A stretch of DNA of 64,000 nucleotides from an uncultured Acidimicrobiales bacterium (GTDB taxonomy: Bacteria; Actinomycetota; Acidimicrobiia; Acidimicrobiales; SZUA-35): positions 118,114-182,113 of the forward strand of contig CAVRSZ010000001.1 in assembly GCA_963723995.1 (NCBI GenBank), read 5' to 3'. Below, piece by piece: positions 6,102 through 47,350 of this stretch. The number at the start of each line of letters is the position of its first letter. Position 1 is the stretch's first letter. Made by a program: the position numbers and the translations under genes. Under the pieces are notes generated by a model that saw nothing but the letters and a program-made list of their open reading frames with translations, did no database searches and was not told the DNA's origin.

Positions 6102-6112
6102 CTTGTCAATTG

Positions 6113-9036: not shown

Positions 9037-9044
9037 CAAGGCTC

Positions 9045-9654
9045 GTGGGTAGACAGCGAGACACCACACCGCAAGCACGAACAATCCGAACGCGATGCCG
9101 AACACGAGACCGAGACCTCCGGAATCACCGGTCTCGGAACCGATGATGAGGGCGAGCATGACGAGTGAGATGGTGTCGGTGATCGAGCTGGCACCGACGA
9201 TCGCGGCGACGGCCGGGTTCTTCGTCAACCCGTAGCGGCTCACCGTTGGATAGGTGATCAGCGTGAACGACGCCCACAGCGAACCGATCAACACCGCAGC
9301 CGTCGTATCGATGCCGAGCCACATCGCGACGCCGGTGCCGAGCACCAGCGGGATGAACGCCGTCAATAGCCCGAAGCCTGCCGAGATGCGCCGGAAGCGG
9401 ATGAACGAATCGATATCGAGCTGCAGGCCTGCGAGGAAGATCAAGTAGAGAATCCCGATGCTGCCCACCGATTCGAGCGTCGTAATGCTCGGCAACACAT
9501 CCAACAGGTTGGGACCGATCAGAGCACCGCCCAGCAGCAGCCCCAGCAACCCCGGCATTCGTAGCCGTGCCGCCATGAGCGACCCGAAGACCACGATCAA
9601 CGCCACGGCCGTGAAACCGAACGCCGACCCCTGCTGGACTTCGTTCCACGTCAT
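9045..9654 (-). pseudogene. 5' ~200 codons of a cation:proton antiporter (CPA2/Kef-type), truncated at the transposon junction
   Basis: MTWNEVQQGSAFGFTAVALIVVFGSLMAARLRMPGLLGLLLGGALIGPNLLDVLP...GIAFGLFVLAVWCLAVYP, after which the ORF turns into non-membrane nonsense to 8599. Confidence 0.7.
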
Positions 9655-10133
9655 CGTTCACCTCCCATCGACCAGCGGACGAGCAACACTCGTTGCGTGC
9701 TCCGGGCCGTCGTCGCCCCGTCCATGATCGCAAACCAGAGCTGCCGGAACCGGCTCTCAGGCCGCTGCGTCGATGCGCTCGTTTCCGAATCCCACGGGTG
9801 GTTCCGCTGTGGACGGCGGGTCGGTTGATCTGGTGGCCCAGGACGGCAAGTTGATCGCGTCGGACGACGACCGCCTATTCGGCCCCACAGGGTCACAACG
9901 TGGTTGGCAGGATTTGCCGCAATACTGTTATTGCTGTCGGTTTCGCATTGTCTCGGTTGCCGGCCACAATCGGGTTGGGCGCCGTTGCGTCGCAACCTTT
10001 GGACTGCTGCGCAGGAAGCGACCTCAAGGATGGATGACGGGAGCAGGTTTGAATCGAACACTTGACCAGGTTGTCGAAGAGGGCGAATGTCCGAAGCGGT
10101 TCATCATCAACCGTTTTCTCTCCGACAAGCCTT

Positions 10134-10163
10134 TGTGACAATGAGGGGCACCGTATTGTCACA
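10134..10163. promoter_or_regulatory. inverted repeat TGTGACAAT-N12-ATTGTCACA spanning the SDR start codon
   Basis: The 9-bp arms are perfect and the ATG at 10141 lies inside the left arm. Confidence 0.4.
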
Positions 10164-10917
10164 GGCCCCACAGCCCAGCTTTTCCCTCGAGGGCCGAGTT
10201 GCGTTGATCTCCGGCGCCAGCCGAGGCATCGGCCGGGGACTCGTCGATGCCCTCGCCCGGGCCGGCGCGACCGTTGCCGCCGGTGCACGCACGAAGGACG
10301 CCTTGAGCGACCTCGACGCTGCGGGCCCAGCCGTGCACCCCTACCGGCTTGATGTCACCGATCTCGACAACATCACCACCACCATTGACCAGGTCGTTGC
10401 CGACCATGGATCGCTGGACGTCCTCATCGCCAACGCCGGACTCGGAGACAATCGCCCCGCCGTCGACGTCACCGAAGACGACTGGGACACCATGATGGCC
10501 GTCAACCTCAAGGGACTCTTCTTCACGTGTCAGGCCGCTGGCCGCCACATGATCAAACAAGGCAGCGGCCGCGTCATCGCGATGAGCTCCCAGGCCTCGG
10601 TGGTGGGCATTGCCGACCACGCCGTCTACGCAGCCTCGAAAGGCGGCGTCAACCAGCTCGTGAAGGTCCTCGCTCTCGAATGGGGCCCGCTCGGCGTGAC
10701 TGCCAACGCCATCGCCCCCACCTTCACCTATACGCCCGGCACCGCCGAACGGCTCGACGACCCCGACTACCGAGCGCGAGTCATCGACCGCATCCCCGTC
10801 GCCGAGGTGGCCACGATCACCGACATTGCGGGCGCCGCCATCTACCTGGCTTCCGACGCCGCCCGCATGGTCAACGGCCACATCCTCCTCGTCGACGGCG
10901 GCTGGACCGCCCAATAG
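10141..10917 (+). CDS. SDR family oxidoreductase
   Basis: GRVALISGASRGIGRGL (TGxxxGxG), NAG, and S...YxxxK (YAASKGGV). Confidence 0.85.
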   Translation: MRGTVLSQAPQPSFSLEGRVALISGASRGIGRGLVDALARAGATVAAGARTKDALSDLDAAGPAVHPYRLDVTDLDNITTTIDQVVADHGSLDVLIANAGLGDNRPAVDVTEDDWDTMMAVNLKGLFFTCQAAGRHMIKQGSGRVIAMSSQASVVGIADHAVYAASKGGVNQLVKVLALEWGPLGVTANAIAPTFTYTPGTAERLDDPDYRARVIDRIPVAEVATITDIAGAAIYLASDAARMVNGHILLVDGGWTAQ

Positions 10918-11049
10918 CGTGGCGCTCCAGGTTGCTGATGGACAGCATGTGGTAGCGGCTGAACAAGGCGGTGTCGACGGTGAAGAAGTTCCAGGCATCG
11001 GCGGCTTGCGAGTGTAGGAATCACCACCAGGTGTCGTCCTGGCCTTGTT

Positions 11050-12036
11050 GTGGTTCGGGTCCCGGGTTGCCGCGACGCCATCGAAATGCGACGCTGGACA
11101 AAGCAGCTACGACGTCACGGAGGGAGAGATCGCATGCCGAGCGTGATCGCACGGGCCCAACGACCGGTGGTGCGACAGATCGGGAAGCGGCTCGCCGCAG
11201 CCGACACACCCGAACAGATGCGAGCATTCATCGACCGGGTCACCACCATCCTTCTGACGCCGACCAGGGGCGTCACCCGCTCGAACGCCACGCTGGGCGG
11301 CCTCGCCAGCCTCCGGATTGAACCGAAGGCTTCTACTTCCGGCGATCGAGGCCTTCTGATGTTCCACGGCGGGGGCTATGTGTTCGGCTCGCCGTCGATG
11401 TACAAGCACCTGGCCGGGCGGATCGCCAAAGCTGCCGGTGCAACCGTACACGTGCCCTCCTATCGGCTGGCACCAGAGCACCCGCATCCAGCTGCCATCG
11501 AAGACGGACTGGCCGCGTACCGAGCGATCCTCGACGATCACGAACCCGAACGGCTGGCGGTGGGCGGCGATTCCGCCGGCGGGAACATGGCTCTCACCGT
11601 GCTGATCGCTGCTCGCGATGAAGGGCTCCCGATGCCTGCGTGCGTCCTGCTGATGAGCCCGTGGACCGATCTCACTGCGACCAGCGACAGTTGGATGACC
11701 AACGTCGACAGCGAACTTCTGATCCGCCCCGAGGCGATTCGGCGGGTGACCGGGTGGTACTGCGGCGAAAGCGACGCCGGCGACCCGCGCCTCTCACCGC
11801 TTTTCGCCGATCTCCGAGGCTTGCCGCCGATGCTTATCCAGGTCTCCGACGAGGAGATCCTCTACAGCGATAGCACCGCCCTTGCCAAAGCCGCACTCGC
11901 CGCGGATATTGACGTGCGGCTGGAGGTGGCGAACGGCATGTGGCATGTGTGGCAGCTCCAGGCCCCGATCGTGCCCGAGGCCCGCGCCTCGATCAAATCG
12001 GCCGGTGAGTTCATCCGTCGGCACACGGACCGATGA
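11050..12036 (+). CDS. alpha/beta hydrolase, hormone-sensitive-lipase-type esterase
   Basis: HGGG box LLMFHGGGYVFGSP and nucleophile GDSAGGNMAL. The true start may be ATG 11134. Confidence 0.8.
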   Translation: MVRVPGCRDAIEMRRWTKQLRRHGGRDRMPSVIARAQRPVVRQIGKRLAAADTPEQMRAFIDRVTTILLTPTRGVTRSNATLGGLASLRIEPKASTSGDRGLLMFHGGGYVFGSPSMYKHLAGRIAKAAGATVHVPSYRLAPEHPHPAAIEDGLAAYRAILDDHEPERLAVGGDSAGGNMALTVLIAARDEGLPMPACVLLMSPWTDLTATSDSWMTNVDSELLIRPEAIRRVTGWYCGESDAGDPRLSPLFADLRGLPPMLIQVSDEEILYSDSTALAKAALAADIDVRLEVANGMWHVWQLQAPIVPEARASIKSAGEFIRRHTDR

Positions 12037-12241
12037 CAGGATTGACGCCATCGCGCGATGAAGTCGAAACGGCCGACTGAGGCTGAGGAGACGACGACGA
12101 GTGAGGTAATCCGGGAAGCGATCCGACAGTTCCTGGAAGGGGCCTAAATCGCCGTCCAGCCCGCAGCTCCGGACCAGGGTCTGCCCGCAGGCCCCGGTCG
12201 GCGCAGCGGATCGAGTCGGTTGTCATCGCACGCCTGGTTGC

Positions 12242-13207
12242 CTACTGCTGGTTGAGATGGCCGATCAGCGCATCAACCTCGTCGGCGACGACGCTGGGTT
12301 CGATGACGCGAACCGGGGCGCGAAGCGCCACTCGGGCCAGCGCCATGACGAGTGACTCGAGCTCGTTCGCGCCAAGTCGGATCGTGCACGAGTCGGCTTC
12401 AGTGTCGACCGGCGTGTTCTCAACCCATGACAATGCCTCGGCGACCTGTTCGTAGGGGGCCTGCACGGCCACGAGCGTTTCGATGTCGCGAGGTATCGAG
12501 GCGACCGAGGCCGCAAGGTATGCAGCAGCGTTGCCGCCGGGGATGTCGCGTGGCGCGAATCGTCCACCGGCAAGTTGCACGTCGCTGAGTCGGTCGAGGC
12601 GGAACGTGCGCCAGCCGGTACGCCGAAGATCCCATGCGAGGAGGTACCAGAGGCGGCCAGCGGAGAGCAACTGGTGCGGTTCGACCAGACGACGGCTGTC
12701 CTCGCCGTCGCGGCGTTGATAGTCGAAGCGGACTTCTTCGTGGGCTCGACACGCCGAGGCGAGCACGCTGAGTGTCTCCGGGGCGACGACTCCGCCGTCG
12801 CCGTGCGCTCGACGTAGCGATACGACAGCGCCGTCGAGTGCGGACACACGACGCCGTAGGCGGTCGGGCAGTGCCTGTTCGACTTTGGCCAGTGCCTGCA
12901 CCGATGTGTCCTCGATGCCGGCGATCGCAGCGCCGGCGGCGGCGCGCAGTCCGACTACGACCGCCACCGCTTCGTCATCATCGAACACCAGTGGCGGCAG
13001 GTGCGCACCGGCCGCCAGTCGGTATCCGCCGTCGCTGCCCGGTGTGGCATTGACCGGGTAGCCCAGATCGCGCAGTCGATCGACGTCGCGGCGAACCGTT
13101 CGCTCGGTGACGTCCAAGCGCTCGGCCAGTTCGGCCCCAGACCACAGTCGGTGGGTCTGCAGCAGCGAGAGGAGTTGCAGCGCCCGCCCGGTCGGATCGT
13201 TTCGCAT
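12242..13207 (-). CDS. YafY-type HTH/WYL-domain transcriptional regulator
   Basis: GRALQLLSLLQTHRLWSGAELAERLDVTERTVRRDVDRLRDLGYPV...GGYRL, plus the central WYLLAWD (WYL) motif. Confidence 0.85.
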   Translation of the reverse strand: MRNDPTGRALQLLSLLQTHRLWSGAELAERLDVTERTVRRDVDRLRDLGYPVNATPGSDGGYRLAAGAHLPPLVFDDDEAVAVVVGLRAAAGAAIAGIEDTSVQALAKVEQALPDRLRRRVSALDGAVVSLRRAHGDGGVVAPETLSVLASACRAHEEVRFDYQRRDGEDSRRLVEPHQLLSAGRLWYLLAWDLRRTGWRTFRLDRLSDVQLAGGRFAPRDIPGGNAAAYLAASVASIPRDIETLVAVQAPYEQVAEALSWVENTPVDTEADSCTIRLGANELESLVMALARVALRAPVRVIEPSVVADEVDALIGHLNQQ

Positions 13208-21206: not shown

Positions 21207-22428
21207 TCAGATGCCGGCGTCGGGGCGGGTCTGGCCGAGCTCGAACAGTTGCTGATGGTAGCTGACGTTGGCCGGGTCCTCGGGATCCTTGGTCTTGCCT
21301 GGCAGGAGCGAGGCGAACAGGCCCATCTCAGTGGTCAAGATGTAGGCGGTGACCACGGCGACTGCCGCCGGCGCAGCGGTGATCGGTCCAACGCTGACGG
21401 TGAGAACGGCGAGGAGGGCTATCGAGAACGGGGCCTTGATCGACGCCCCCGGTACGGCGACAAGAAGGCACGACAGGGTCAACGCGATCGGCAGGTCCGG
21501 GATGATGACGTGGGTGGCGACACCGGCAGCGCCGCCGATGACGAGCGTCGGCATGACCGGCCCCCCCGATGAAGCCGGTGGCCAGGCTCGTCGCCATCGC
21601 CACGATCTTTGCCAACACAATCCCGACGAGCACCAACGCCCCCAGCTCGTCGGCCTGGTTGATCATGTCCGGCAGCTGCGCCTTGCCCGACCCCAGTGTC
21701 AGCGGGAAGAACACGGCGATGAGCCCGACGGCGAGACCCCCGACCCCGGCACGCACGACGGTGTTCGGGATCCGCGTAAACCAGGTTCGCAAGACGAAAA
21801 CCGTCGCGCCCAGCAGCCGAGACAGGAACGCGCCCACCACACCAAGCAGCACGGCGACACCGAAGTGCCAGTACTCGATCTCGTAAGACGGCACGGCGAA
21901 GACATCGACGAAGGTGGCGCCGACAAACGTGAACACCACAAAGAAACCAAAGACCGACGCCACCAGACTGGGCGCCACCGTTCGGTAGTAGCGCTCATGG
22001 CGCTCCGGTGGGTTCAGCTCAGTCACCAACAGCGTGGCCAGGACCGGCGACGTGAGCAGGCCGCCGATCGCCCCGTTGATGCCGACCAGCGTGTTGAGCT
22101 TGCGCGTCTCGCCCTCGGCGCCGACCCGGTCCGAGAACCACTCGCCGACCGCGCCACCGGAGCGGACCCCGGCATCGAAGGGCCCCAGGCTTGCGCCGCC
22201 GACGAGAGAGACCCACGAGACGAGGATCATCGGTATAGCCGAGCGTTGATCGACGTGGCGGACGGCGATGCTCTCGAGCGCGCCGTTCGGCTCGATGGGC
22301 ACCTGCAGCCAGCGCCGCAGCAGCCCAACGAGAAGACCTGCTCCGACGGTGAGGGCAATCCATCGTCGAAGAATCCGGGAGGTTCTCGGTGGACGGCCAC
22401 CTAGCGGTCGATATCGGGCGCCGCGCAT
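21207..22428 (-). pseudogene. ClC-type chloride/fluoride channel gene with +1 frameshift in a G7 run
   Basis: The 21328-22428 frame carries ClC TM sequence up to ..ATGFIGG. Removing one G of the coding-strand G7 (plus-strand C7 at 21561-21567) joins it to ..PVMPTLVIGGAAGVATHV... in frame 21207-21620, restoring a GxFxP-like motif. Confidence 0.75.
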
Positions 22429-29166: not shown

Positions 29167-29770
29167 TCAGGCTGACCTGGTTCGGTCGGTGAGGCCATCG
29201 AAGGCGAGCAGCGCCTGAGCCCGCAGGAGAGCGGGGTCTTCTCCCGTCGCCATTCGCAGCAGCAGCGCGTTGCCCTGGATGTCGATCATGGCGGCAGCAA
29301 CGTCGGTGGGCACTCCCGGCGGGATTTCGCCGCGTTCCTTGGCCAGTTCGATGAGCCGGCGTAGCGTTGTCGAGCGCTGTCTCGCAATGCACTGACCCGT
29401 GCAGCGACAGTAGGGCCCAGCTGGGTGGGGGGGCGTGCAGCATTCGGGCGAGCAGGCAGCCGGCGGGGCCGGAACGGTCAGGGTCGGTGAACATCTCGAC
29501 CACCGCGGTCAGCACCCCACGGAGCGACGCCGCAGGATCTATCTGGGCGGCGTGCGGCTCCAGCACGGTCAAGGCGTAGTGTTCGAGGGCGGCGTCCATG
29601 AGTCCGTCCTCGCCGCCGAACTCCCGGTACATGCCGGGCTTGGACACCGATGCTCGGCGGCATAGCTCGTTGAGGGAGACGCCATCGACGCCCTCACGCC
29701 AGTATTCCTGCATTGCGGTCTCGATGACACGCCGGCGGAAGAAGCTGCCCCTGTACACGACCGTGCGAAC
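29167..29770 (-). pseudogene. TetR family regulator, frameshifted near a homopolymer
   Basis: The HTH part VIETAMQEYWREGVDGVSLNELCRRASVSKPGMYREFGGEDGL is in one frame. The C-terminus ..RRLIELAKERGEIPPGVPTDVAAAMIDIQGNALLLRMATGEDPALLRAQALLAFDGLT* is in another. The switch lies at or near the plus-strand G7 run 29427-29433. Confidence 0.65.
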
Positions 29771-29929
29771 GCGGCGAGCCTTCGTCTGGTGTCGCCCGAA
29801 TGGCCCCGTGTTGGTCGCGCTCGCAGGGCGGCGACATCCTTCGAAACGCCCGAGGTCGACATGCCCACCGAGATCCGAACCCTCGCCGGCCGCCAGATCC
29901 ACTTGTCGTGCTGCTCCATGACGAGCGTG

Positions 29930-30515
29930 CCATCATGGCGTGGTCGGCGCCCAGCGACCGGACAAGATCCAGGTTCTTCGTGCTGCAGACACCGGTCACG
30001 TCTGCGCCGAGGGCTTTGGCGAGCTGGACGGCGAGGACGCCGACCCCACCGGAGGCGCCCACGACTAGCACATGGTGCTCTGATGTGACCTGCCCTTTGC
30101 GCAGAGCCTGCAAGGCGGTGGATCCGGGCATGGCGACTGTGGCCGCCTCAGCGAATGACAGCTTCGGCGCCTTTGGCGCCAATGCATCCTCGGTCGCAGA
30201 TACGTACTCGGTGACGGCTCGCTTGGACGAGCCGAATACCGCAGCACCAGGTCGGAACCGGGTCACGTCGGTGCCGACGGCCTCTACCTCACCGGCGAAG
30301 TCCAGGCCGGGGAGGTGGACCTTTGGCTTGTGAAACCGACCAGTGATCCGGCCGATCGACTGCATGATGGCGGGCGGGTCCCAAGTCCACGGCTTCGCTG
30401 ATGCCGCCCGCACACGGACCAGCACCTCGTCGTCGTTGATGTGTGGCATCTCGATGTCCTCGACCTGGTCGATCCCTCCTTGCGGCAGATACCTATCTCG
30501 CACAAGCGCCTTCAT
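29930..30515 (-). pseudogene. MDR-family NAD(P)-dependent oxidoreductase lacking a normal C-terminal third
   Basis: MKALVRDRY...LPGLDFAGEVEAVGTDV...VLVVGASGGVGVLAVQLAKALGADVTGVCSTKNLDLVRSLGADHA, then the homology is lost. The ORF runs on into the TetR region. Confidence 0.55.
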
Positions 30516-30756: not shown

Positions 30757-31150
30757 TCATGCGGCGTCTTCGTGTTCGTTGACGAGACCGTCGAATCGGG
30801 TCGGTCGGAGTGCTGTGACGGTCGCCGGCGGTGCCGGGGGTGGCTCGTGCGCAGCTTCTGGCGATGGGCATCTTGAGGACTTCGGTTCGGAAGATCTCCT
30901 CGAAGCTCTCCATGAATTGGCTACCCCGATCATGAACGAGAGCTCGAGCCGTGTCGAGTTGTTCGCCATGACTGAGGAACAGGTTGCGCGCAATTCGGGT
31001 GGTCCAGGCGCCGGCCGGATCGCCACGCCGTTGTCGTGACCAAGGCCGACGAGCTCGCCATGGATCCGCCGGTGTCCCCAGGTCGGGTCCTCGGTGGCCA
31101 GTGCACGATCAGCCGGCGTCGCAAGGTGTCGGGGCGTCACGATCCAGCCT
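30757..31150 (-). mobile_element. internally deleted, frameshifted remnant of a DDE (rve-type) transposase/integrase
   Basis: Pieces lie in three frames: ..EDPTWGHRRIHGELVGLGH..; ..ARNLFLSHGEQLDTARALVHDRGSQFMESFEEIFRTEVLKM..; and the C-terminal ..RFDGLVNEHEDAA*. The order matches recalled actinobacterial integrase-type transposases. Confidence 0.55.
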
Positions 31151-31399
31151 TGGCGCAGTTGGCGGGGGAGTGCTGCGCCGATCTGCGAGGAGGGTGCGGT
31201 TGTCGTGGCACCGCCTTGCAGGTCGTTGTCGACGGCGATCGACCCGTAGGAGCCGTCGATTCCGTAGATGGCGCGGCACAGGCCACAGGGATGATGGTGG
31301 CGACGGTGAAGGTGGTCTTGGTCGAGGTAGGGCGGTATGCGTGGCGGCGTCGCGGCGTCGCCAGGTGTCAAGGTCGCTTCGCACTGGGTTCTTGTGCCG

Positions 31400-32155
31400 T
31401 CACGCCGATGCCTTCTTCATCTCGGACTCACTCCAGCCGAGGCGCCCCGAGAGATCGTGTGCAAGGCGGATCAGTTGCTCGCCGGTCCGCTTCCGGAAAG
31501 CCGGTGTGAACACCCGGAGCGATCCGGCGGCGCCGATCGACATGGTGGGGGGCTCACCGCTCGGGCCGAGCGGCGCTGCGACCGAGCACATGCCTCGCTC
31601 GATCTCCTCGACGCATTCGGCATACCCGGATCGTCGGATTCGATTGAATTCGGCTTTGAGATCGTCGTGGTCGGTGAGGGTGAACTCGGTGTATGCCTTC
31701 AGACGACCCGCCATCGACTGGGCGATGTCGGGTGAGAAGGCGGCGACCGCTTTGGAGCACGAGCAGGCGTGAAGTGGTCGCTTGCCGAGGCCCGGGTGGA
31801 GAAACGAGACTCCGGTGTTGGGCGTCTCGACGTGTACGATCTCCACCGCCCTACCCCGTAAACGGGACAGGAAGAACGTGATTCCGTGGGTGTCGGCGGC
31901 TTCCTGGAGCACGGGCGAAATGGTCTCGAGCAGGTTCTGATCGGAGTGGTCGGCTTCGGTGATGCGCTTGAGCCGGTTGCCGACGGCGTAACGACCCTTG
32001 GCCACGGAATCGAGTAGCCCGGCGTCGGCCAGATCGTTGACGAGCCGGTACGCGGTCGGTTTCGGCAGATCGGAGTGGGCGCAGATGTCGGCGACGGTGG
32101 CGTCGCCCTTTTGCCCGACGATTTCGAGGATCAGGGCCAAGCGTTCGAGATGCAC
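31400..32155 (-). CDS. IclR family transcriptional regulator
   Basis: LERLALILEIVGQKGDATVADICAHSDLPKPTAYRLVNDLADAGLL, plus an IclR effector domain (..HPGLGKRPLHACSCSKAV..ECVEEIERGMCSVAAP). GTG start. Confidence 0.85.
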   Translation of the reverse strand: MHLERLALILEIVGQKGDATVADICAHSDLPKPTAYRLVNDLADAGLLDSVAKGRYAVGNRLKRITEADHSDQNLLETISPVLQEAADTHGITFFLSRLRGRAVEIVHVETPNTGVSFLHPGLGKRPLHACSCSKAVAAFSPDIAQSMAGRLKAYTEFTLTDHDDLKAEFNRIRRSGYAECVEEIERGMCSVAAPLGPSGEPPTMSIGAAGSLRVFTPAFRKRTGEQLIRLAHDLSGRLGWSESEMKKASA

Positions 32156-32247
32156 GGTCTCCCCTCTGCGGAAGTCTCAGCTTGCGAGAAATACTATCTC
32201 ACTCTACGATAAATCGAAACCGACCTCAACCGCGATATCGAGGAAGC

Positions 32248-33615
32248 ATGGCCGTGGAGACCGAAAGCAGCTGCTGTGGGCCAGGGTTCCAAAGCCCTTC
32301 AGAAGCGATCAATGCGCCACGCGAGAAGCTGCTGTACACCGTTGCCCTGTACACCGGCACGGGTATCCAGAAGCCTGACTACCTCGCCACGATCGACGCC
32401 GATCCGGAGAGCCCGACCTACTCCCAAGTCATCCATCGGCTCGAGATGCCCGGTATCGGCGACGAGCTCCATCACACCGGATGGAACGCCTGCTCGTCGT
32501 GCCACGACGACTCGTCGATGGCCCGCAAGTACCTACTGCTCCCGGGCGTGCGCTCGAACAACATCTACGTCGTCGACACCGCCACCGACCCGAATGCTCC
32601 ACGCCTGCACACCGTGATCGACGGCGACGAGATCAAGGCGAAGACCAACCTCTCCGGTCCACACACCGTCCACTGCCTGCGCTCGGACATCATCATCTCG
32701 TTCCTCGGTGACGCCAAAGGGGAGGCACCCGGGGGGTACCTGCACCTCAGCAAGGATTTCGAGATCATCGGCCGCTGGGAGAACTCCATGGGCGACATTC
32801 CGTTCGGCTACGACTTCTGGTATCAGCCGCGGCACAACGTGATGGTCACGTCGGAGTGGGCGGCCCCCAACACCTTCATGCCCGGATTCGACCTGGAGGA
32901 GGTCGGCCACCTCAAGTACGGCCGGCGCCTGCACATCTGGGACTTCGAGAAGCGCGAACCGGTGCAGTCGATGTACCTCGGCGAAGATGGACTCCTTCCG
33001 CTCGAGGTCAAGTTCCACCACGACCCCGACTCGACTCACGGATTCTGCTGCGCAGCGTTGAGCTCCAACATCATCCACTTCTGGAAGGACGACGACGACG
33101 CCTGGCAGTGGGAGAAGACGGTCGATGTCGAGAACGAGCTGCATGCCGAATGGCCGATCCCGCTGCCCGGGGTGATGTCGGCGCTGCTCGTGTCGATGGA
33201 TGACAAGTACCTCTACATCAACAACTGGCTGCACGGCGACATGCGCCAGTACGACATCACCGACCCTCATGACCCCAAGCTGACCGGACAGGTCTGGATG
33301 GGCGGTCTGCTCGGGAAGGCACCGGAGGTCAACGGCGTGAAGGTCGCGGGCGGCCCGCAGATGTTCCAGCTGTCGCTCGACGGCAAGCGGATGTACGTGA
33401 CCACATCGCTGTTCTCGACGTGGGACAACCAGTTCTATCCCGAGATTCGTACCCAGGGTGGTGTGATGGTGATGATCGACTGCGACCCCGAAAACGGCGG
33501 GATGAGGATCAGTGAGGACTTCATGATCGACTTCGGACAGGAACCAAACGGTCCCAGCCGCTGTCACGAGACCCGGTACCCGGGCGGCGACTGCACCAGC
33601 GACATCTGGCTGTGA
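32248..33615 (+). CDS. SBP56 (selenium-binding protein / methanethiol-oxidase) family protein
   Basis: MAVETESSCCGPGFQSPSEAINAPREKLLYTVALYTGTG...DELHHTGWNACSSCH...NNIYVVD. The N-terminal CCGPG and the beta-propeller repeats are typical of SBP56. GAGGAAG RBS. Confidence 0.85.
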   Translation: MAVETESSCCGPGFQSPSEAINAPREKLLYTVALYTGTGIQKPDYLATIDADPESPTYSQVIHRLEMPGIGDELHHTGWNACSSCHDDSSMARKYLLLPGVRSNNIYVVDTATDPNAPRLHTVIDGDEIKAKTNLSGPHTVHCLRSDIIISFLGDAKGEAPGGYLHLSKDFEIIGRWENSMGDIPFGYDFWYQPRHNVMVTSEWAAPNTFMPGFDLEEVGHLKYGRRLHIWDFEKREPVQSMYLGEDGLLPLEVKFHHDPDSTHGFCCAALSSNIIHFWKDDDDAWQWEKTVDVENELHAEWPIPLPGVMSALLVSMDDKYLYINNWLHGDMRQYDITDPHDPKLTGQVWMGGLLGKAPEVNGVKVAGGPQMFQLSLDGKRMYVTTSLFSTWDNQFYPEIRTQGGVMVMIDCDPENGGMRISEDFMIDFGQEPNGPSRCHETRYPGGDCTSDIWL

Positions 33616-33986
33616 TGGTGCGCCGCACGATCACCATCGCCAACCAGGGCGGCGCCACCTATGTCGTCGACGCCGACCGCCCACTCCTCGAGACGCTGGC
33701 AGAGCTCGGCGTCGATCTCCCGTACGGCTGTCGCTACGGCGGTTGCATCACCTGTGCCGCCAAGCTGACCGCCGGCGAGGTCGACCAACACGAACAGGTC
33801 GCGCTCAACAACCGCCAGATGAACAACGGATACGTCACGCTTTGCGTTGCCCGCCCCCTGTCCGACTGCACGTTCGAAGTCGGCGTCGCAAGCCACGACA
33901 CGCTCTACCGCAATCCTTTCCTCGATCCACTCGAGCCACATGAGCTCAAGCCCGACATCGCCCAGCCAAGGAGGCGTGATGCCTGA
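33612..33986 (+). CDS. plant-type [2Fe-2S] ferredoxin
   Basis: Cys pattern YGCRYGGCITCAAKL...VTLCVARP (C-x4-C-x2-C...C). The start overlaps the SBP56 stop (GTGATG). Confidence 0.8.
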   Translation: MMVRRTITIANQGGATYVVDADRPLLETLAELGVDLPYGCRYGGCITCAAKLTAGEVDQHEQVALNNRQMNNGYVTLCVARPLSDCTFEVGVASHDTLYRNPFLDPLEPHELKPDIAQPRRRDA

Positions 33987-34491
33987 AGCCGACGTCGACC
34001 GACGATACGACTACGCGCCCGCCTTCCTCGCCGCGATCCTGCGCTCGGTGAAGACCATCGCCATGGTCGGCGCCAGCGCCGACAAGACCAAGTTCAGCTA
34101 CGGTGTGCTGCGACAGCTTCACGAGATCGGCTACGAGATCCTGCCGGTCAATCCGAACCCGGCGATCACCGAGATCCGCGGAATCAAGGTGTGGCGTTCG
34201 CTCGACATGATCGGCCGGCCCGTCGATATGGTTGATGTGTTCCGACCGAAGGAAGAGCTTCGTGAGATTGCGGAGCAAGCCATCGCAATCGATGCAAAGG
34301 TGCTGTGGGGTCAGATCGGCGTCTACGACGACGAGGCGGCGGCCCTTGCCGAAGCCGCCGGGCTCAAGGTCGTCATGGACCGTTGTCCGAAAATCGAACT
34401 CTTTCGTCCGTTCTGGAAGCCTCGTCTCGACCTCGAGCTCAATCTGCCCGAGAAGCCCGGATCGATCGTCCAAACCGAAACCCACCTGTGA
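33979..34491 (+). CDS. CoA-binding domain protein (YccU/YneT-like)
   Basis: KTIAMVGASADKTKFSYGVLRQLHEIGYEILPVNPN...VDMVDVFRP. AAGGAGG RBS and an 8-nt overlap with the ferredoxin gene. Confidence 0.8.
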   Translation: MPEADVDRRYDYAPAFLAAILRSVKTIAMVGASADKTKFSYGVLRQLHEIGYEILPVNPNPAITEIRGIKVWRSLDMIGRPVDMVDVFRPKEELREIAEQAIAIDAKVLWGQIGVYDDEAAALAEAAGLKVVMDRCPKIELFRPFWKPRLDLELNLPEKPGSIVQTETHL

Positions 34492-34498
34492 GAACACA

Positions 34499-35299
34499 AT
34501 GACGAACCTAGACCTTCTACTCCGTACTGATGACGACGGTGTCGCCGTCCTCACCCTGAACGAGCCGGGGTCGATCAATGCGCTCTCGGAGGCGATGATC
34601 GAAGCCCTCTCCGGTGAGTTCGACCGCATTGCCGACGACCGCTCGGTCAAAGCCGTCATCCTCCGAAGTGCCGGCGAACACTTCTGCGCAGGGCACAATC
34701 TAAAGGAGATGACCGCCCGCCGCGACGACGCCGACGGCGGATTCCAGTACTACCAGGATCTCTTCGCCGCCTGCTCGGCGATGATGCAACGCATCGTCAA
34801 CCTGCCCCAGCCGGTGATCGCGGAAGTGAAGGGAATCGCCACGGCGGCCGGCTGTCAGCTCGTCGCCTCGTGCGACCTGGCCGTGGCTTCCGACGATGCC
34901 AGATTCGCCACCTCGGGCGTCAATATCGGGTTGTTCTGCTCCACCCCGATGGTGGCGCTGAGCCGCAATGTGGCGCGCAAGTTCGCCATGGAGATGTTGG
35001 TCCTCGGCGAGTTCCTACCGGCGGCGCGAGCCGCCGAGATGGGCCTCGTGAACCGTGTCGTGCCGCGCGCCGAGATCGGGTCGGCGTCGATGGAGCTGGC
35101 GCGCACCATCGCCGACAAGTCACCGGCCGCGGTCAAGGTCGGCAAGCGGGCGTTCTACGAACAGCTCGAGATGCCACTGGCCGATGCCTACGCCTACGCC
35201 GGACGCGTCATGGCCGAGAACATGATGGCCCGGGACGCCGAGGCCGGGATCGGCGCGTTCACCCGCAAGGAACCGATGCCGACATGGACCGGCGAGTAG
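34499..35299 (+). CDS. enoyl-CoA hydratase/isomerase (crotonase) family protein
   Basis: VAVLTLNEPGSINALS...VILRSAGEHFCAGHNLKEM...VIAEVKGIATAAGCQLVASCDLAVAS. Confidence 0.85.
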   Translation: MTNLDLLLRTDDDGVAVLTLNEPGSINALSEAMIEALSGEFDRIADDRSVKAVILRSAGEHFCAGHNLKEMTARRDDADGGFQYYQDLFAACSAMMQRIVNLPQPVIAEVKGIATAAGCQLVASCDLAVASDDARFATSGVNIGLFCSTPMVALSRNVARKFAMEMLVLGEFLPAARAAEMGLVNRVVPRAEIGSASMELARTIADKSPAAVKVGKRAFYEQLEMPLADAYAYAGRVMAENMMARDAEAGIGAFTRKEPMPTWTGE

Positions 35300-42826: not shown

Positions 42827-43969
42827 TCAGGCGGTGGCGAGCGACTTTTTCGGGTCGAAGAACGGTCGGTCGGCGACTGTCGCCCGGGTCGGTCCCGAAC
42901 CTTTGCTCACCTCGACCTCGGTGCCGATCTCGGTGAAGTCAACCGAGATCATGGCCAGAGCGATGTTCTGCTCGAGTCGAGGCGAGTAGATGGCCGAGGT
43001 GACCTTGCCGATCGTCGAATCCTCTTTCGTGATGGGCCAGAACGAGGTGTTGGGGCCGGAAAGTCGCGGGCCATCAATGATCAGACCCACCTGTCGGCGG
43101 CTCACTCCTTCCTGTCGGATACGGCGCAGGGCCGGCTTGCCGATGAAGTCGGCTTCGATGTCGAGGTTGACCAGTCGGTCGAGCCCGAGCTCGTACGGGT
43201 TGGTGTGTATGTCGGCATCGGCGTGGTACGACAGCATACCGCCCTCGATTCGCCGGATCGAAGAGGTATGGCCGGGCTTCAGACCGAACGGCTCACCGGC
43301 GGCCATGATCGTCTCCCACAGCTCGTCGCCTCGGGAGCCGTCCTGCAGGTAGAGCTCATAGCCGAGCTCGCTCGACCATCCGGTCCGTGAGACAACGAGC
43401 GAGATGCCGTCGAGATCCACCTCGCGAAACCAGTAGTACTTGAGATCGTGGATGTCGTCGCCGAAGAGGGCCTCCATCACCCTGCCGGACTGCGGTCCCT
43501 GAAGTTGCAGCGGGGAGACGTCCGGTTCGACGATGGAGACGTCCATTCCCGAGTGCACGGCCGCGCCCTGGGCCCACAACAGAATGTCGGAGTCGGAGAG
43601 TGAGATCCAGAAGTGGTTCTCGGCGAGGCGCAGCAGGACCGGATCGTTCAGAATGCCGCCATCGGCGTTGGTGATGAGGATGTACTTGCACTGCCCGACG
43701 GCCATCGTCGACAGATCACGTGGCGTCAGCAGCTGCATGAATCGGGCCGCATCCGGCCCGGTTATCTCGACCTGCCGCTGCACGGCGACATCGCACAGGA
43801 TGGCGTCGTTCACAAGGTTCCAGAAGTTCTGCTCCGGATTCCCAAAGTCTCGAGGGATGTACATGTGGTTGTACACCGAGAAGTGCTTCGCGCCCCATCT
43901 GACGGTTGCGTCGAAGTACGGCGACTTGCGTATCTGGGTACCAAACCCGAATCCGTCCGTCTGGTTCAC
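42827..43969 (-). CDS. aminomethyltransferase-fold (GcvT/DmdA family) folate-dependent methyl/aminomethyl transferase
   Basis: SPYFDATVRWGAKHFSVYNHMYIPRDF...QRQVEITGPDAARFMQLLTPRDLS...NDPVLLRLAENHFWISLSDSDILLWAQG...EPDVSPLQLQGPQS...SRTGWSSELGYELYL...IRRIEGGMLSY. The GTG start follows GGAGGG and overlaps the upstream stop (GTGA). Confidence 0.85.
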   Translation of the reverse strand: MNQTDGFGFGTQIRKSPYFDATVRWGAKHFSVYNHMYIPRDFGNPEQNFWNLVNDAILCDVAVQRQVEITGPDAARFMQLLTPRDLSTMAVGQCKYILITNADGGILNDPVLLRLAENHFWISLSDSDILLWAQGAAVHSGMDVSIVEPDVSPLQLQGPQSGRVMEALFGDDIHDLKYYWFREVDLDGISLVVSRTGWSSELGYELYLQDGSRGDELWETIMAAGEPFGLKPGHTSSIRRIEGGMLSYHADADIHTNPYELGLDRLVNLDIEADFIGKPALRRIRQEGVSRRQVGLIIDGPRLSGPNTSFWPITKEDSTIGKVTSAIYSPRLEQNIALAMISVDFTEIGTEVEVSKGSGPTRATVADRPFFDPKKSLATA

Positions 43970-44952
43970 GTTCGTCCCTCCATCGGTGACAGGCCGCGGC
44001 ACACCAGGCATTGTTGCTCCCACTCGACCTGCTCGGCTGCGGTCCGGTCCGCCTCGGTTTGATACTTGGGTTCGGATGAGCGCTCGGATCGTGTGTCGCC
44101 GGCCGGCTCGGCCGTGGTCTGCTCGTTCTGCCGGTTTCGGCTCCACCCGAGGGGTTCTGCCTTCCAGTGGTCGTCGATGTAGCGGTAAGGAAGGTCGACA
44201 ATCGTGCCCGGCTCGGCGACACGATGGGCTCGGGTGAGGCCTTCGGTCAGGAGGGCCCTCTGACCGCTGGAATCGTTGGGCAGGCCGGTGGTATGGCCGA
44301 GCGGGAGGTCGACGAACACCGATCGGGGGGGCTTGACCCGAGCCGTGATGGTCCTGGCCGACGAGAAGGTGATGGTGGGGAGTCCGGCCTCCTCGAGGTG
44401 GCGGGCAACCAGTCCGACCGACTGGTGGCAGACCGGTCAAACCGGCACGAGGAGCACGAGGTCCGGCTCCTGGGCCCGGCAGTGCTCGAGCAGGAGCGGT
44501 GCTGTCTCGGCCACAAGGCGTCTGGTGGAGTAGATCCCACCCATGAAGGCGGCGGCGTCGGTGACGCTTCCGATCAGGCCCTCATCGGCGAACTCCCGGA
44601 GTCGGGCGAGGGGGTAGACACAGTTGAGATCGTTCCTGGCGTCGGTCTCGTCGTACGCGAAATGGGCTGTGCGCAGCTCGGACGCCGGGGTGTCGGCCGA
44701 GATGATCCGGATCGAGGTGTCATCCTTGGTGTGGAAGGCGATCTGACCGTGCCGGTAGATGCCTCCCGACCCGATCAGGGTGATTCTGCACTTGTCCAAA
44801 GGTCTCGCGATTGGTGCCCACGGCGGTTGGCCCGGCCGCTCAGCCCAACGGTACGGCTCGTAGCCGTACGAGTCGTAGAGTCGCCTCGTCTCGACGATGT
44901 AGTCGGCCGGCGGTAGCGGCGAGCGCCCCGAGCGGAGTTCGGATTCGTTCAT
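43966..44952 (-). CDS. GrdB/PrdB-family (glycine/sarcosine/betaine/D-proline reductase B-like) putative selenoprotein, in-frame UGA at 44437-44439
   Basis: Track ORFs 44437-44952 and 43966-44319 share one frame with no other stop between them. Read-through gives ..EPDLVLLVPV-U-PVCHQSVGLVARHLEEAGLPTITFSSARTITARVKPPRSVFVDLPLGHTTG... The U-x-x-C motif and flanks resemble recalled GrdB sequence around its Sec. GGGAGG RBS. Confidence 0.7.
44405..44429 (-). promoter_or_regulatory. candidate bacterial SECIS hairpin
   Basis: Seven nt after the UGA: GCCACCAGUC-GGUCG-GACUGGUUGC. This gives 9 Watson-Crick pairs plus one C.U mismatch and a G/U-containing apical loop about 18-22 nt from the UGA. Confidence 0.5.
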
Positions 44953-44971
44953 TCGTGCCTCCCGATTGGGA

Positions 44972-45730
44972 TCATTGGGCGAGGACGGAAAGTGGCTGCA
45001 TCGTCAGCACCAAGGTGAGACGTTCGGCCATGGTCCGCAGTTCCGCACCGAGTTGGGATCGGCGTCGAGCATCGAACCGTCGGATCGGCCCGATGACGCC
45101 AACGCTGAAGGCCGGTTCGACAGCATCAATCCAGATCGGAGCGGCCACACTGGCCACTCCCGTTTCCAGCTCCTCGACACATTCTGCGAAACCACTCTGG
45201 CGGACCTGTTCCAGCTCGAGCCGGACGACCTCCGGCGACGTCTTGGTGTGCTCGGTGTATGACCGCAGCGGCGTGTGGAGAATACGGTCGCGAACCTCGT
45301 CGTCCGAGAAGGCCAGGATCACCTTGGCGCACGAACAGGCATGGCGGGGTCGGTACCCGAGGCCGGGGTGGACGTAGGACAAGGATGGATCGGACGGGGT
45401 TTCGACGTGGATGATCCTCACTGCGTCGTCCCTGAACCGCGACAGGAAAACCGCCTCGCGAAGGTCATCGGCGGCTGCTGCAAGCGTCGGTGCAGTGGCG
45501 GAGACCACGTCGCCTTCACTCCAGCCGAGTATGGCGACGCGGCGTAGCCGTTCTCCCACTCGGTAGCCCCCATCGGCGATGTCGACCAACCCGTGATCAC
45601 GCAGCGATTGGAGCATCCGGTAGCAGGTGGGTCGGGGCAGCTTGGTGGCGGCCTGGACCTCGGCCACCGACACCGATCGGCCGGCGGCGGCGATGGTCTC
45701 CAGCACGGCCATCATCCGTTCGACGTTCAC
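44972..45730 (-). CDS. IclR family transcriptional regulator (paralog of 31400-32155)
   Basis: VERMMAVLETIAAAGRSVSVAEVQAATKLPRPTCYRMLQSLRDHGLV...FLSRFRDDAVRIIHVETP...HPGLGYRPRHACSCAKV...ECVEELETGVASVAAP. Ends 20 nt before the selenoprotein gene start. Confidence 0.85.
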   Translation of the reverse strand: MNVERMMAVLETIAAAGRSVSVAEVQAATKLPRPTCYRMLQSLRDHGLVDIADGGYRVGERLRRVAILGWSEGDVVSATAPTLAAAADDLREAVFLSRFRDDAVRIIHVETPSDPSLSYVHPGLGYRPRHACSCAKVILAFSDDEVRDRILHTPLRSYTEHTKTSPEVVRLELEQVRQSGFAECVEELETGVASVAAPIWIDAVEPAFSVGVIGPIRRFDARRRSQLGAELRTMAERLTLVLTMQPLSVLAQ

Positions 45731-45895
45731 GACCGTTGCTCCGACATAGTGTCAACTCCTTGGACCCCCACCGCGATCCTCGTTCCTTTCCGTGCAGTAT
45801 CTCATATTGCGAGTAGTAATCTCAATAGATAAGATCGCGCCGCAGGGGGTCCAATCCTCGGTGCAGATTGCGGGCCGGTTGAGGTTCGACCGGCT

Positions 45896-47350
45896 TTGAC
45901 TGCATCCGTCGAGCGAGCCCCGATCCCTCGCAGGAGGTCTCCGTTGGTTCTTTCTCGTGCCCACCAGTCGTCGGATTCCGCATCCCGACGAGTGATCGTG
46001 ATCGGCGGCGATGCGGCCGGGATGAGCGCTGCGGTTCGCGTTGCCCGCGATCCCGAGTCGGAGGTGATGGTCTACGAACGGGAGGACGTCGTGTCGTACG
46101 CGGCGTGCGGCATGCCGTACCACCTCGACGGTCGCATCCCCGACGCCGGCGCCCTGCTCGTTCGCAGCCCGGCAACGTTCCGTGAGAGTGGGGTGGCTTT
46201 GCGGCTCGGTGCCGAGGTCACCGCCATCGATCCTGAAGCCGGCACGTTGACCGGTCGTGACGTCGGCACGGGGGAAGAGTTCACCGACGTCTTCGACCGC
46301 GTGCTGATTGCCACCGGCTCCCGAGCCCTACGGCCTCCGGTCGAGGGGATCGACGCCCCCAACGTCTACGTGTTCCGACGCTACGTGGACATGATCGAGC
46401 TGGCCGGTTTCCTCAATGAACGCCGTCCGACGACCGTCACCGTGATCGGCGGCGGTTTCATCGGAATCGAGCTGGCCGAGGTGCTCACCGATCGAGGGCT
46501 GACCGTCACGCTCGTCGAGATGGCACCATCCCTGATGCCGGGTGCCCTCGACGCCGACATTGCCGAGCACCTGACGACCGAGCTCCGCCACCACGGCGTC
46601 GACGTCCATCTCGGCTGTCGCGTCGACACGCTCCACCTGGACGGTAAAGGATTGGCCGAAGCGGTTGAAATGTCGGGTCCGGATGGTGCCTCGACGACCT
46701 GGAGCACCGATCTGGTCGTGCTCGGTGCCGGCGTCGCCCCCAACGGCGAACTGGCCTCGGCTGCCGGGATCGAGGTCGACGGCCGGGGCGCCGTCGTGGT
46801 CGACGAACAGATGCGTACCAGCCACCCCCGCGTCTGGGCCGCCGGCGACTGCGCCACCACCTACCACCGCGTGACCGGCCTGACGGTGTGGGTACCGCTT
46901 GCCTTGGGTGCCAATCGGCAGGGTCGCATCGCCGGCCAGAACCTCGTCGGGGGCTCGGTGACATCGCCCGGCGTGCTCGGCACCTCGCTGGTCAAGGCAT
47001 TCGATCTCCATGTCGGCCGCACCGGCCTGACCGAGGCCGAAGCGACCGACGCCGGCTGTGACGCTGTCATCGATACCATCACCGCATCGGATCGGGCTCG
47101 CTACTATCCGGGCAGCGCCGACACCATCGTGAAGCTGGTTGCCGAGCGTACCACCGGCCGGGTGCTCGGGGGCCAGGTCGTCGGCCGTGATGGAGTGGCG
47201 GGCCGGACCAATGTCCTGGCCACTGCGCTTCACGCCGGGTTGAACGTGGCCGAGGTCGCCGACATGGACCTGGGCTACGCCCCACCCTTCTCCCAGGTCT
47301 GGGATCCGGTCCTGCTGGCTGCGTCGGAGCTCCTCAAGAAAGTGGGCTGA
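45896..47350 (+). CDS. FAD-dependent pyridine-nucleotide disulfide oxidoreductase, CoA-disulfide reductase/NADH-oxidase subgroup
   Basis: RVIVIGGDAAGMSAAVRVAR...VVSYAACGMPYHL (single redox Cys), VTVIGGGFIGIELAE, ..AAGDCA. The start codon is uncertain. Confidence 0.8.
   Translation: MTASVERAPIPRRRSPLVLSRAHQSSDSASRRVIVIGGDAAGMSAAVRVARDPESEVMVYEREDVVSYAACGMPYHLDGRIPDAGALLVRSPATFRESGVALRLGAEVTAIDPEAGTLTGRDVGTGEEFTDVFDRVLIATGSRALRPPVEGIDAPNVYVFRRYVDMIELAGFLNERRPTTVTVIGGGFIGIELAEVLTDRGLTVTLVEMAPSLMPGALDADIAEHLTTELRHHGVDVHLGCRVDTLHLDGKGLAEAVEMSGPDGASTTWSTDLVVLGAGVAPNGELASAAGIEVDGRGAVVVDEQMRTSHPRVWAAGDCATTYHRVTGLTVWVPLALGANRQGRIAGQNLVGGSVTSPGVLGTSLVKAFDLHVGRTGLTEAEATDAGCDAVIDTITASDRARYYPGSADTIVKLVAERTTGRVLGGQVVGRDGVAGRTNVLATALHAGLNVAEVADMDLGYAPPFSQVWDPVLLAASELLKKVG

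Follow-up and report, generated by a model that had tools for sequence, protein, structure and literature searches.

A conserved SBP56–ferredoxin–CoA-binding protein operon with an ECHDC3-type crotonase and a proposed role in cytoplasmic thiol oxidation

The subject of this analysis is an operon in a 64,000-nucleotide stretch of DNA from an uncultured Acidimicrobiales bacterium (contig CAVRSZ010000001.1 of assembly GCA_963723995.1; the whole stretch is termed the window and all positions are counted from its first letter). In it, genes for an SBP56 protein, a plant-type [2Fe-2S] ferredoxin, a stand-alone CoA-binding protein, and a crotonase-fold protein lie head to tail behind a divergent IclR-family regulator (Table 1). 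The evidence supports the view that the first three genes form a real conserved functional unit. Relatives were chosen by SBP56 similarity alone, as the best 80 of more than 591, each from a different species-representative genome, and in all 80 the SBP56 gene is directly followed by the ferredoxin gene and then by the CoA-binding gene. Because the genomes were picked on SBP56 similarity alone and the trio was nevertheless found in every one, the arrangement is far beyond what chance would give. On balance, and with modest confidence, we favor the proposal that the operon is under IclR control, is horizontally mobile, and serves to oxidize methanethiol or short alkyl thiols in the cytoplasm as part of organosulfur catabolism of the dimethylsulfoniopropionate (DMSP), methylmercaptopropionate (MMPA), or methionine type.

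Conservation of the SBP56, ferredoxin, and CoA-binding genes

The SBP56 proteins of the 80 genomes are 82-90% identical to that of the window, and the genomes comprise 7 Acidimicrobiia (the closest, at 88-90%), 24 SAR11, about 9 SAR116, many roseobacters, three Gammaproteobacteria, and other Alphaproteobacteria, with the Rhodobacterales orthologs at 82-87%; the trio is conserved across at least three phyla. The closest cassettes are those of Ilumatobacter and other Acidimicrobiales metagenome-assembled genomes, and metagenomic contigs display the same SBP56 neighborhood. The preliminary description of this DNA had made its reading of the operon depend on conserved synteny, and the gene set does recur well outside the source strain, with the trio in 80 of 80 genomes and the crotonase linked in 34 of them.

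At lower SBP56 identity, the SBP56-ferredoxin pair is found in Marmoricola (67%), in another bacterium (70%), on a plasmid of Paracoccus seriniphilus (66%; locus L093, positions 6420-9300), and on three of the four haloarchaeal plasmids checked (49-54%). A Chloroflexota locus has SBP56, the CoA-binding gene, and the ferredoxin gene, with the order swapped and adjacency kept, followed by a metallo-beta-lactamase (MBL)-fold gene and a rhodanese gene. In the P. seriniphilus locus a DUF2182 protein follows the ferredoxin, replacing the CoA-binding protein, and an S-(hydroxymethyl)glutathione dehydrogenase (glutathione-dependent formaldehyde dehydrogenase) is encoded 1.8 kb downstream, in keeping with formaldehyde being produced.

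The mobility of the cassette is argued from two facts, the 82-90% identity that is kept across phyla and the presence of a copy on a conjugative plasmid of Phaeobacter, which together point to horizontal spread. Within the window the 2-kb bin at 32001-34000 has the lowest G+C content (0.624 versus ~0.65 overall), and this low value, taken with the cross-phylum protein identity, is compatible with horizontal acquisition.

The SBP56 protein

The SBP56 protein matches PF05694 over its full length, residues 9-455 being aligned to profile positions 2-453 of 453. It carries C9 and C10 (in CCGPG), C82-x2-C85, the histidine pairs H75/H76 and H139/H142, D189, E253, and C449. In an alignment of 12 diverse orthologs (alignment A1) H75, H76, H139, H142, D189, E253, C82, C85, C143, and C449 are invariant, and C9/C10 are also conserved among orthologs; conserved cysteines are many in this protein. 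The residues published for the methanethiol oxidase of Roseobacter denitrificans (RdMTO, UniProt Q166Z5) and for human SELENBP1 are H75/76, H139/142, D189, and E253 at the copper site and the cysteines C8/9, C82 (CSSC), and C448 (Schlemminger et al., 2026), and the window SBP56 has every one of them at near-identical numbering. The cytoplasmic SELENBP1 type has been termed ‘cluster 1’ in Rhodobacteraceae, with the cysteine markers GWNACS, HTVHC, and GGDC(S/T) (Cao et al., 2024). Judged by this residue-level agreement, the window SBP56 is a predicted cytoplasmic copper thiol (methanethiol) oxidase of the SELENBP1/RdMTO type.

Inspection by eye of the N-terminus (MAVETESSCCGPG) reveals neither a hydrophobic nor a twin-arginine leader. 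A longer reading from TTG-32182 is likewise leaderless and runs across a conserved operator-like motif, and since this extension crosses the motif and adds no leader, ATG 32248 is the likely start. The cytoplasmic location given in the preliminary description holds at either start, and so does its statement that this is not the described MtoX arrangement. Specifically, the protein scores 162.6 bits against the MtoX equivalog model (NCBIfam NF052453), far from the cut-off of 650, it has no leader, and the genes downstream encode Fer2, CoA_binding_2, and ECH proteins instead of SCO1/SenC and MauG.

RdMTO is an experimentally proven copper-dependent methanethiol oxidase, and the copper-dependent conversion of methanethiol to formaldehyde (HCHO) and a sulfur product has been demonstrated for RdMTO, RlMTO, and SELENBP1. 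The products of RdMTO are in dispute, as one study reports sulfane sulfur (S0) without H2O2 and the other H2S together with H2O2; supplied with copper alone in vitro, RdMTO converts methanethiol to H2S, H2O2, and HCHO. RdMTO is reported to accept other alkyl thiols as well.

A sea-spider entry named ‘Methanethiol oxidase [Nymphon striatum]’ shares 75% identity with the window SBP56. RdMTO and human SELENBP1 are much less alike (reportedly ~53%), and the entry may represent bacterial contamination of the animal assembly.

Operon architecture

The TGA stop codon of the SBP56 gene (33613-33615) lies within the sequence GTGATG (33612-33617), and the ferredoxin has two start candidates there, GTG 33612 with a 4-nt overlap with the SBP56 gene or the in-frame ATG 33615 with a 1-nt overlap. 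The ferredoxin stop codon (33984-33986) and the start codon of the CoA-binding gene (ATG 33979) give an 8-nt overlap (ATGCCTGA) that is closely preceded by an AAGGAGG ribosome-binding site, and the CoA-binding stop codon (34489-34491) is separated by a 7-nt gap from the crotonase start (ATG 34499). The intergenic region between the regulator IclR1 and SBP56 is 92 nt (32156-32247). The gene after the crotonase is on the opposite strand, which limits the unit to four genes and the divergent regulator, and all five are intact. The gene anatomy, with its translational coupling, counts in favor of the proposed operon. Pfam matches and open reading frame (ORF) coordinates bear out the tight packing behind a divergent IclR that had been reported for this operon, with five genes and all three junctions exactly as claimed. 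Scans for sigma-70 promoters and intrinsic terminators gave nothing above the shuffled background, and an Rfam search of the window gave no match.

The ferredoxin and the CoA-binding protein

The ferredoxin ligands C40-X4-C45-X2-C48 and C78 are conserved in 79 orthologs, and the best matches in the Protein Data Bank (PDB) are chloroplast and cyanobacterial ferredoxins (~1e-21), with a score of 78.9 bits against TIGR02008 that is just under the trusted cut-off of 81.15. Beyond the canonical fold the protein has a C-terminal extension of about 33 residues (roughly 90-123) with the conserved sequence GVxSHDxLYRNPFLDPLxPHELK. The SBP56-linked ferredoxins are a single family that combines plant-type ligands with a tail of the form GVxSHDxLYxNPF.... 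The CoA-binding protein scores 126.9 bits against PF13380 (profile positions 1-114 of 116), its best solved structures are 2DUW (7e-30), 1IUK, and 2D59, and its subfamily conserves the motifs IAMVGAS and, at the C-terminus, RCPKIELFRPFWKPRL. It is of the PF13380 stand-alone, single-domain type and is predicted to bind CoA.

According to the preliminary description, the SBP56 protein would oxidize a thiol with a ferredoxin partner. A strict need for ferredoxin is contradicted by the ortholog RdMTO, which oxidizes methanethiol in vitro with copper and no partner. Because RdMTO is active alone in this way, the ferredoxin and the CoA-binding protein would modulate, protect, or couple the reaction and would not enable catalysis as such.

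The crotonase-fold protein

The crotonase scores 397.3 bits against NF006008 (PRK08139), above the cut-off of 313, and its best PDB matches are 3MYB of Mycobacterium smegmatis (1.5e-75) and human ECHDC3 (2VX2; 4e-64). The two catalytic glutamates of crotonase-fold hydratases are equivalent between AcuH (Glu112/132), rat enoyl-CoA hydratase (Glu144/164), and DmdD (Glu121/141), and in an alignment to AcuH (5XZD) these positions are occupied in the window protein by Gln120 and Gly140. Both glutamates are missing in all 34 locus-linked crotonases. The comparison with DmdD was made by mapping catalytic residues through AcuH and by PDB ranking. AcuH matches the crotonase only at the generic superfamily level (7e-32), and the 60 best PDB matches include neither DmdD (4IZB-D) nor 3HIN, the closest homolog of DmdD in the PDB. 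With both glutamates replaced, the crotonase cannot release methanethiol by DmdD-style hydration and, on the residues present, cannot be a canonical hydratase. The analogy to DmdD that had been drawn for this gene is thus lost, and so is the converse possibility that it is a generic fatty-acid enoyl-CoA hydratase, given its ECHDC3/PRK08139 subtype.

Crotonases of the same subtype (AGH[ND]LKE, AAGCQL, FAT[SP]GVNIGL) are encoded within 6 kb of the trio in the 34 linked genomes. In all 24 SAR11 genomes and in two roseobacters the gene directly precedes SBP56; in seven roseobacter, gammaproteobacterial, or Hyphomicrobiales loci it lies downstream of the trio, and in Spiribacter it is on the other strand. 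Since the same subfamily joins the trio in two gene orders, a functional link between them is indicated. The closest Acidimicrobiia loci (L011-L017) have no crotonase within 6 kb, and the window crotonase is closest to roseobacter copies. Its AGH[DN] histidine motif is one that we take to resemble that of methylmalonyl-CoA decarboxylase (YgfG). Membership of the decarboxylase family was rejected at 123 bits against a cut-off of 257.

Regulators and operator-like motifs

Of the 80 related genomes, about 35 have a divergent IclR gene, of the type of IclR1 or of its paralog IclR2, next to SBP56, and IclR2 orthologs (46-53% identity) are the SBP56-adjacent regulators in four loci (L006, L019, L027, L048). 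Comparison of the IclR-SBP56 intergenic regions reveals a shared sequence, TTGCGAGAA-N-ATCTC-N-CGATAA, from Acidimicrobiia to roseobacters, and in loci of Acidimicrobiia, roseobacters, and Gammaproteobacteria alike the operator-like pattern is found at one and the same position ahead of SBP56. For the simplified pattern YGAKAA-N16-CGAKAA, 0.03 occurrences are expected per window and two were found (32185-32212 and 21401-21428), a statistic that is partly circular in that the pattern was built by eye from the same sequences; the pattern also occurs just upstream of SBP56 in 8 other loci. The match at 21401-21428 lies within a G+C-rich region overlapping a CLC-like ORF and is probably due to chance. 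An inverted-repeat search did not detect the motif at 32182-32212.

Accessory genes and genomic surroundings

Clustering of all ORFs of the loci identified the neighbors that recur around the trio. A single-domain rhodanese is found in 15 loci, a 294-residue MBL-fold protein, matched best by the model for the dioxygenase half of Blh, a sulfurtransferase/persulfide dioxygenase, is found in 4, and a PRK08162-type acyl-CoA synthetase directly follows the crotonase in 8. The synthetase scores 831 bits as PRK08162-type and is not the DmdB equivalog (294 versus 822). GcvT-family proteins in the loci have the DMSP demethylase DmdA as their best model (366-374 bits versus a cut-off of 410), and about a dozen loci hold a DmdA-like copy at an identity of at least 60%. 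In Phaeobacter inhibens P30 the conjugative plasmid pP30_b (NZ_CP010619.1, 57.8-65.9 kb) has all nine genes side by side (RefSeq annotation), with the DmdA-like family closing the cluster.

In the window itself, tblastn with the cluster-type acyl-CoA synthetase, rhodanese, persulfide dioxygenase (PDO)-like, and flavodoxin-like proteins gave no match, and only the DmdA-like gene was matched. That protein is 74-75% identical to a GcvT-like gene flanking IclR/SBP56 in two loci (L011, L022), and its closest family is DMSP demethylase (NF009133), at 374.3 bits and below the cut-off of 410. No acyl-CoA dehydrogenase (DmdC) was seen among the window ORFs scanned, in a scan that was not exhaustive. 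The canonical dmdA-dmdB-dmdC-dmdD pathway was not recovered in the window, where the DmdA score is below cut-off and no cluster-type ligase matched. Hence the proposed link of the operon to organosulfur and methanethiol metabolism stands in part. It is upheld by the rhodanese, PDO-like, acyl-CoA synthetase, and DmdA-like genes of the relatives and by the DmdA-like gene of the window, and it fails where it invoked DmdD.

The DmdA-like gene belongs to a second regulatory unit (42830-47350) in which DmdA-like, PrdB-like, and IclR2 genes face a CoA-disulfide reductase (CoADR)-like gene and an amino-acid permease gene. The CoADR-like flavoprotein has a possible link to CoA-thiol chemistry, and its membership of the cassette is uncertain; the CoADR-like, PrdB-like, and permease genes are not within the 6 kb SBP56 flanks of other loci and were not counted as core.

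In SAR11, as in the single-cell loci L031 and L057 (positions ~360-12500), the crotonase-SBP56-ferredoxin-CoA-binding operon often has a second CoA-binding paralog. Its surroundings contain EgtB/EgtD-like genes (FGE-sulfatase plus DinB; histidine methyltransferase), a Rieske oxygenase, small APS-kinase-like and cytidylyltransferase-like ORFs, PhyH and HalD-like dioxygenases, a Flavodoxin_2 NAD(P)H oxidoreductase, and a dimethylglycine-dehydrogenase-like gene. In Planktomarina contigs (L002-L005, positions 470-5840) the trio is preceded by genes for a MarR regulator, an Oxidored_FMN/Pyr_redox_2 flavoprotein of 681 residues, an iron alcohol dehydrogenase, and an aldehyde dehydrogenase, and these could handle an aldehyde product.

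Elsewhere in the window several ORFs outside the cassette match partial Pfam profiles (among them those at 8599-9654, 21328-22428, and 29694-30515), including Na_H_Exchanger (2-199/375), Voltage_CLC (35-264/346), and a truncated zinc-dependent alcohol dehydrogenase, and in large stretches at ~25-28.4 kb and 30.7-31.4 kb there are long ORFs that match no Pfam profile, which suggests pseudogenes or a frameshift-prone assembly. An insertion sequence or transposase remnant was suspected at 30757-31371 and had no Pfam support, and no mobile-element claim is made for the window itself.

Table 1. Positions of the operon, its operator-like motif, and the second regulatory unit in the window
Feature	Position	Strand	Evidence and remarks
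IclR1, IclR-family transcriptional regulator	31400-32155	minus	Pfam IclR_C 2e-19, HTH_IclR 1e-9; divergent from the operon
Operator-like motif TTGCGAGAAATACTATCTCACTCTACGATAA	32182-32212	plus	Half-sites CGAGAA and CGATAA 22 nt apart, with GAGAA-N5-TCTC between
SBP56, 455 aa	32248-33615	plus	Pfam SBP56 PF05694, 1e-201, 670.7 bits
Plant-type [2Fe-2S] ferredoxin	33612-33986	plus	Pfam Fer2 7e-15
Stand-alone CoA-binding protein, CoA_binding_2 (YccU/TT1466/PH1109 type)	33979-34491	plus	Pfam PF13380 7e-37
ECHDC3/PRK08139-type crotonase-fold protein	34499-35299	plus	Pfam ECH_1 1e-51; NF006008 above cut-off
DmdA-like GcvT-family methyltransferase, probable accessory gene	42830-43966	minus	7.5 kb from the operon, behind IclR2
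PrdB/GRDB-like small ORF	44437-44952	minus	In the IclR2 unit
IclR2, second IclR	44972-45730	minus	41% identical to IclR1
Second operator-like motif TTGCGAGTAGTAATCTCAATAGATAAG	45807-45833	plus	Lies between the IclR2 and CoADR-like genes; similar by eye to the motif at 32182-32212
CoA-disulfide/persulfide-reductase-like flavoprotein (CoADR-like)	45896-47350	plus	TIGR03385 405 versus cut-off 578.8; NF007123 400 versus 458

Proposed mechanism

We put forward a hypothetical mechanism for the operon in which an S-methylated acid would first be demethylated and activated to a 3-(methylthio)acyl-CoA. The ECHDC3-type crotonase, which has the oxyanion hole and lacks the hydratase glutamates, would then free the thiol without hydration, most plausibly by an enolate-driven beta-elimination, and the copper site of SBP56 would oxidize the thiol to formaldehyde and reduced or sulfane sulfur. 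We propose that the ferredoxin docks through its conserved C-terminal tail and carries electrons to or from the copper/cysteine center, which would limit the release of H2O2 in the cytoplasm, and that the CoA-binding protein presents CoA-SH as an acceptor or carrier of sulfane sulfur in the form of CoA persulfide. The sulfane sulfur would pass from there to rhodanese and PDO in roseobacters or to the CoADR-like enzyme in the genome studied here, and such a role of CoA-SH as sulfur acceptor would fit both the rhodanese/PDO neighbors and the CoADR-like gene. Expression would be controlled by IclR bound at the conserved TTGCGAGAA...CGATAA operator.

Several points weigh against this mechanism. 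The roles given to the ferredoxin, the CoA-binding protein, and the crotonase are drawn from gene context only, neither the ferredoxin nor the CoA-binding protein is strictly required for catalysis as judged from the in vitro activity of RdMTO with copper, and there is no recognisable ferredoxin reductase beside the operon. Some SBP56 relatives at 41-68% identity stand alone, among them several as close as 61-68%. The score of the DmdA-like protein (374 versus 410) means that the upstream substrate may not be DMSP, the window has by tblastn no acyl-CoA synthetase, rhodanese, or PDO homolog, and decarboxylase-like chemistry is an alternative for the crotonase.

A bolder form of the proposal, which we hold to be rather improbable, is that the trio is not an H2O2-releasing oxidase and is instead a three-component thiol dehydrogenase or sulfur relay, in which electrons go to ferredoxin and sulfur to CoA persulfide, with the crotonase acting as a hitherto unrecognized, thiol-releasing 3-(methylthio)acyl-CoA lyase.

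Alternative explanations

The main rival to the proposed oxidation pathway is that the ferredoxin and the CoA-binding protein serve to mature or maintain SBP56, acting in copper loading, in the reduction of CCGPG/CSSC, or in repair after oxidative inactivation, and not as partners in each catalytic cycle. They would then mirror SCO1/SenC and MauG for the periplasmic MtoX, which likewise has two accessory genes thought to act in maturation. Such a role is favored by the near absence of copper from recombinant RdMTO unless copper is supplied (~0.01 Cu per protein), by the activity of the copper-loaded enzyme on its own, and by the many conserved cysteines of SBP56. However, no copper-chaperone role is known for either protein family, the CoA-binding protein has no obvious part to play in maturation, and the strict 1:1:1 operon, in which stop and start codons overlap and which is retained even by the streamlined SAR11 genomes, better suits stoichiometric partners than occasional helpers. 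We therefore regard this rival as unlikely.

The second alternative accepts the catalytic partnership and changes the substrate, which would be another thiol, a selenol, or a CoA-linked species in place of free methanethiol. In one version the C1 unit would be oxidized with CoA to a CoA thioester with reduction of ferredoxin, in the style of the 2-oxoacid:ferredoxin oxidoreductases, and in another CoA persulfide would be processed. The crotonase would in that case act as a decarboxylase or hydrolase on the CoA product. CoA binding and ferredoxin are the cofactor combination of CoA-acylating oxidoreductases, and the trio encodes this pairing. The AGH[DN] motif of the crotonase recalls methylmalonyl-CoA decarboxylase, with the low model score given above, and the window has the CoADR-like gene. 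The conflict between the published RdMTO products (S0 versus H2S and H2O2) and the reported acceptance of other alkyl thiols by RdMTO also speak for a different substrate. Nevertheless, proven methanethiol oxidases have the identical copper site and cysteines, the DmdA-like, rhodanese, PDO-like, and formaldehyde dehydrogenase neighbors fit a methanethiol intermediate, and nothing speaks directly for another substrate, which leads us to consider this explanation less probable still than a maturation role.

That the crotonase is an unrelated, generic beta-oxidation enzyme whose packing in the window is a local accident is largely refuted and very improbable: its linkage within 6 kb in only 34 of the 80 relatives and its absence from the closest Acidimicrobiia loci (L011-L017) would agree with this, but every linked crotonase is of the same glutamate-less ECHDC3 subtype, the linkage occurs in two gene orders and in 24 of 24 SAR11 genomes, and with Gln120/Gly140 the protein is not a canonical hydratase.

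Significance

The marine sulfur cycle has one of its major nodes in the turnover of methanethiol, and the SELENBP1-type SBP56 is the version present in SAR11, the most abundant bacteria of the ocean, and in SAR116, roseobacters, and marine Actinomycetota, the copy in the window being one instance of a very widespread cassette. Both RdMTO studies assayed the isolated protein, and the constant pairing with a ferredoxin and a CoA-binding protein offers a testable reason why the enzyme may behave differently in the cell. Many DMSP demethylators have no DmdD, and for these the crotonase is a candidate enzyme for the step that releases methanethiol. If the lyase reading were true, it would constitute a DmdC/DmdD-independent demethiolation route in SAR11 and roseobacters, and the role of human ECHDC3 (humans have both SELENBP1 and ECHDC3) would be the release of methanethiol from 3-methylthiopropionyl-CoA in the methionine transamination pathway. 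The cassette also provides a first functional context for two orphan families, the ECHDC3-type crotonases, including the human mitochondrial protein, and the YccU-type CoA-binding proteins. Genetics is feasible because a Phaeobacter that can be cultivated has the complete cluster on a conjugative plasmid.

Comparison with known systems

In the open-access literature searched, which took in the two papers on RdMTO, the one on MtoX, and genomics papers on SAR11 and SAR116, we found no mention of a ferredoxin, a CoA-binding protein, or an ECHDC3-type protein as a partner of SBP56 or methanethiol oxidase; in the two RdMTO papers the words ferredoxin and operon are absent and CoA appears in the reference list of one only. 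The enzyme itself is known, and the conserved multi-gene system around it appears to be undescribed.

The MtoX operon of Hyphomicrobium sp. VS and Ruegeria pomeroyi (SPOA0268-0272) shares with the operon described here the SBP56 superfamily, copper-dependent methanethiol oxidation, an IclR-family regulator that is directly upstream in roseobacters, and two downstream accessory genes. It differs in that MtoX has a signal peptide and SCO1/SenC and MauG as partners, whereas the window protein has no leader and is encoded with a ferredoxin and a CoA-binding protein. DmdD and AcuH, the methylthioacryloyl-CoA hydratases of DMSP demethylation, resemble the window crotonase in a crotonase fold acting on CoA thioesters and in a genomic tie to methanethiol metabolism, but they need two glutamates (Glu121/Glu141 in DmdD and Glu112/Glu132 in AcuH) where the window protein has Gln120/Gly140. 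The closer relatives of the crotonase are ECHDC3, 3MYB, and PRK08139, with which it shares AGH[DN]LKE, AAGCQLVASCD, and FATxGVNxGLFCSTP; a literature search aimed at ECHDC3 found no biochemical function for this family, and the linkage to SBP56 is a new context for it.

The CoA-binding protein has the PF13380 fold, as a single domain of ~150 residues, in common with the YccU-type proteins of Klebsiella pneumoniae (2DUW), Thermus thermophilus (TT1466, 1IUK), and Pyrococcus horikoshii (PH1109, 2D59), a stand-alone type for which, to our knowledge, no pathway has been assigned. The window subfamily is set apart by its conserved C-terminal motif (RCPKIELFRPFWKPRL) and by its invariant genomic partnership with SBP56 and the ferredoxin. 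The nearest known system is that of RdMTO, the ‘cluster 1’ enzymes of Rhodobacteraceae, and human SELENBP1, which belong to the same SBP56 fold family and have no signal peptide. As compared by published residues, RdMTO and SELENBP1 share with the window protein CC-GPG, CSSC, the copper ligands, and the C-terminal cysteine of GGDC(S/T)SDIW. RdMTO has been treated in published work as a stand-alone oxidase, whereas in the window and in its 80 close relatives the oxidase gene is always accompanied by those of a ferredoxin and a CoA-binding protein.

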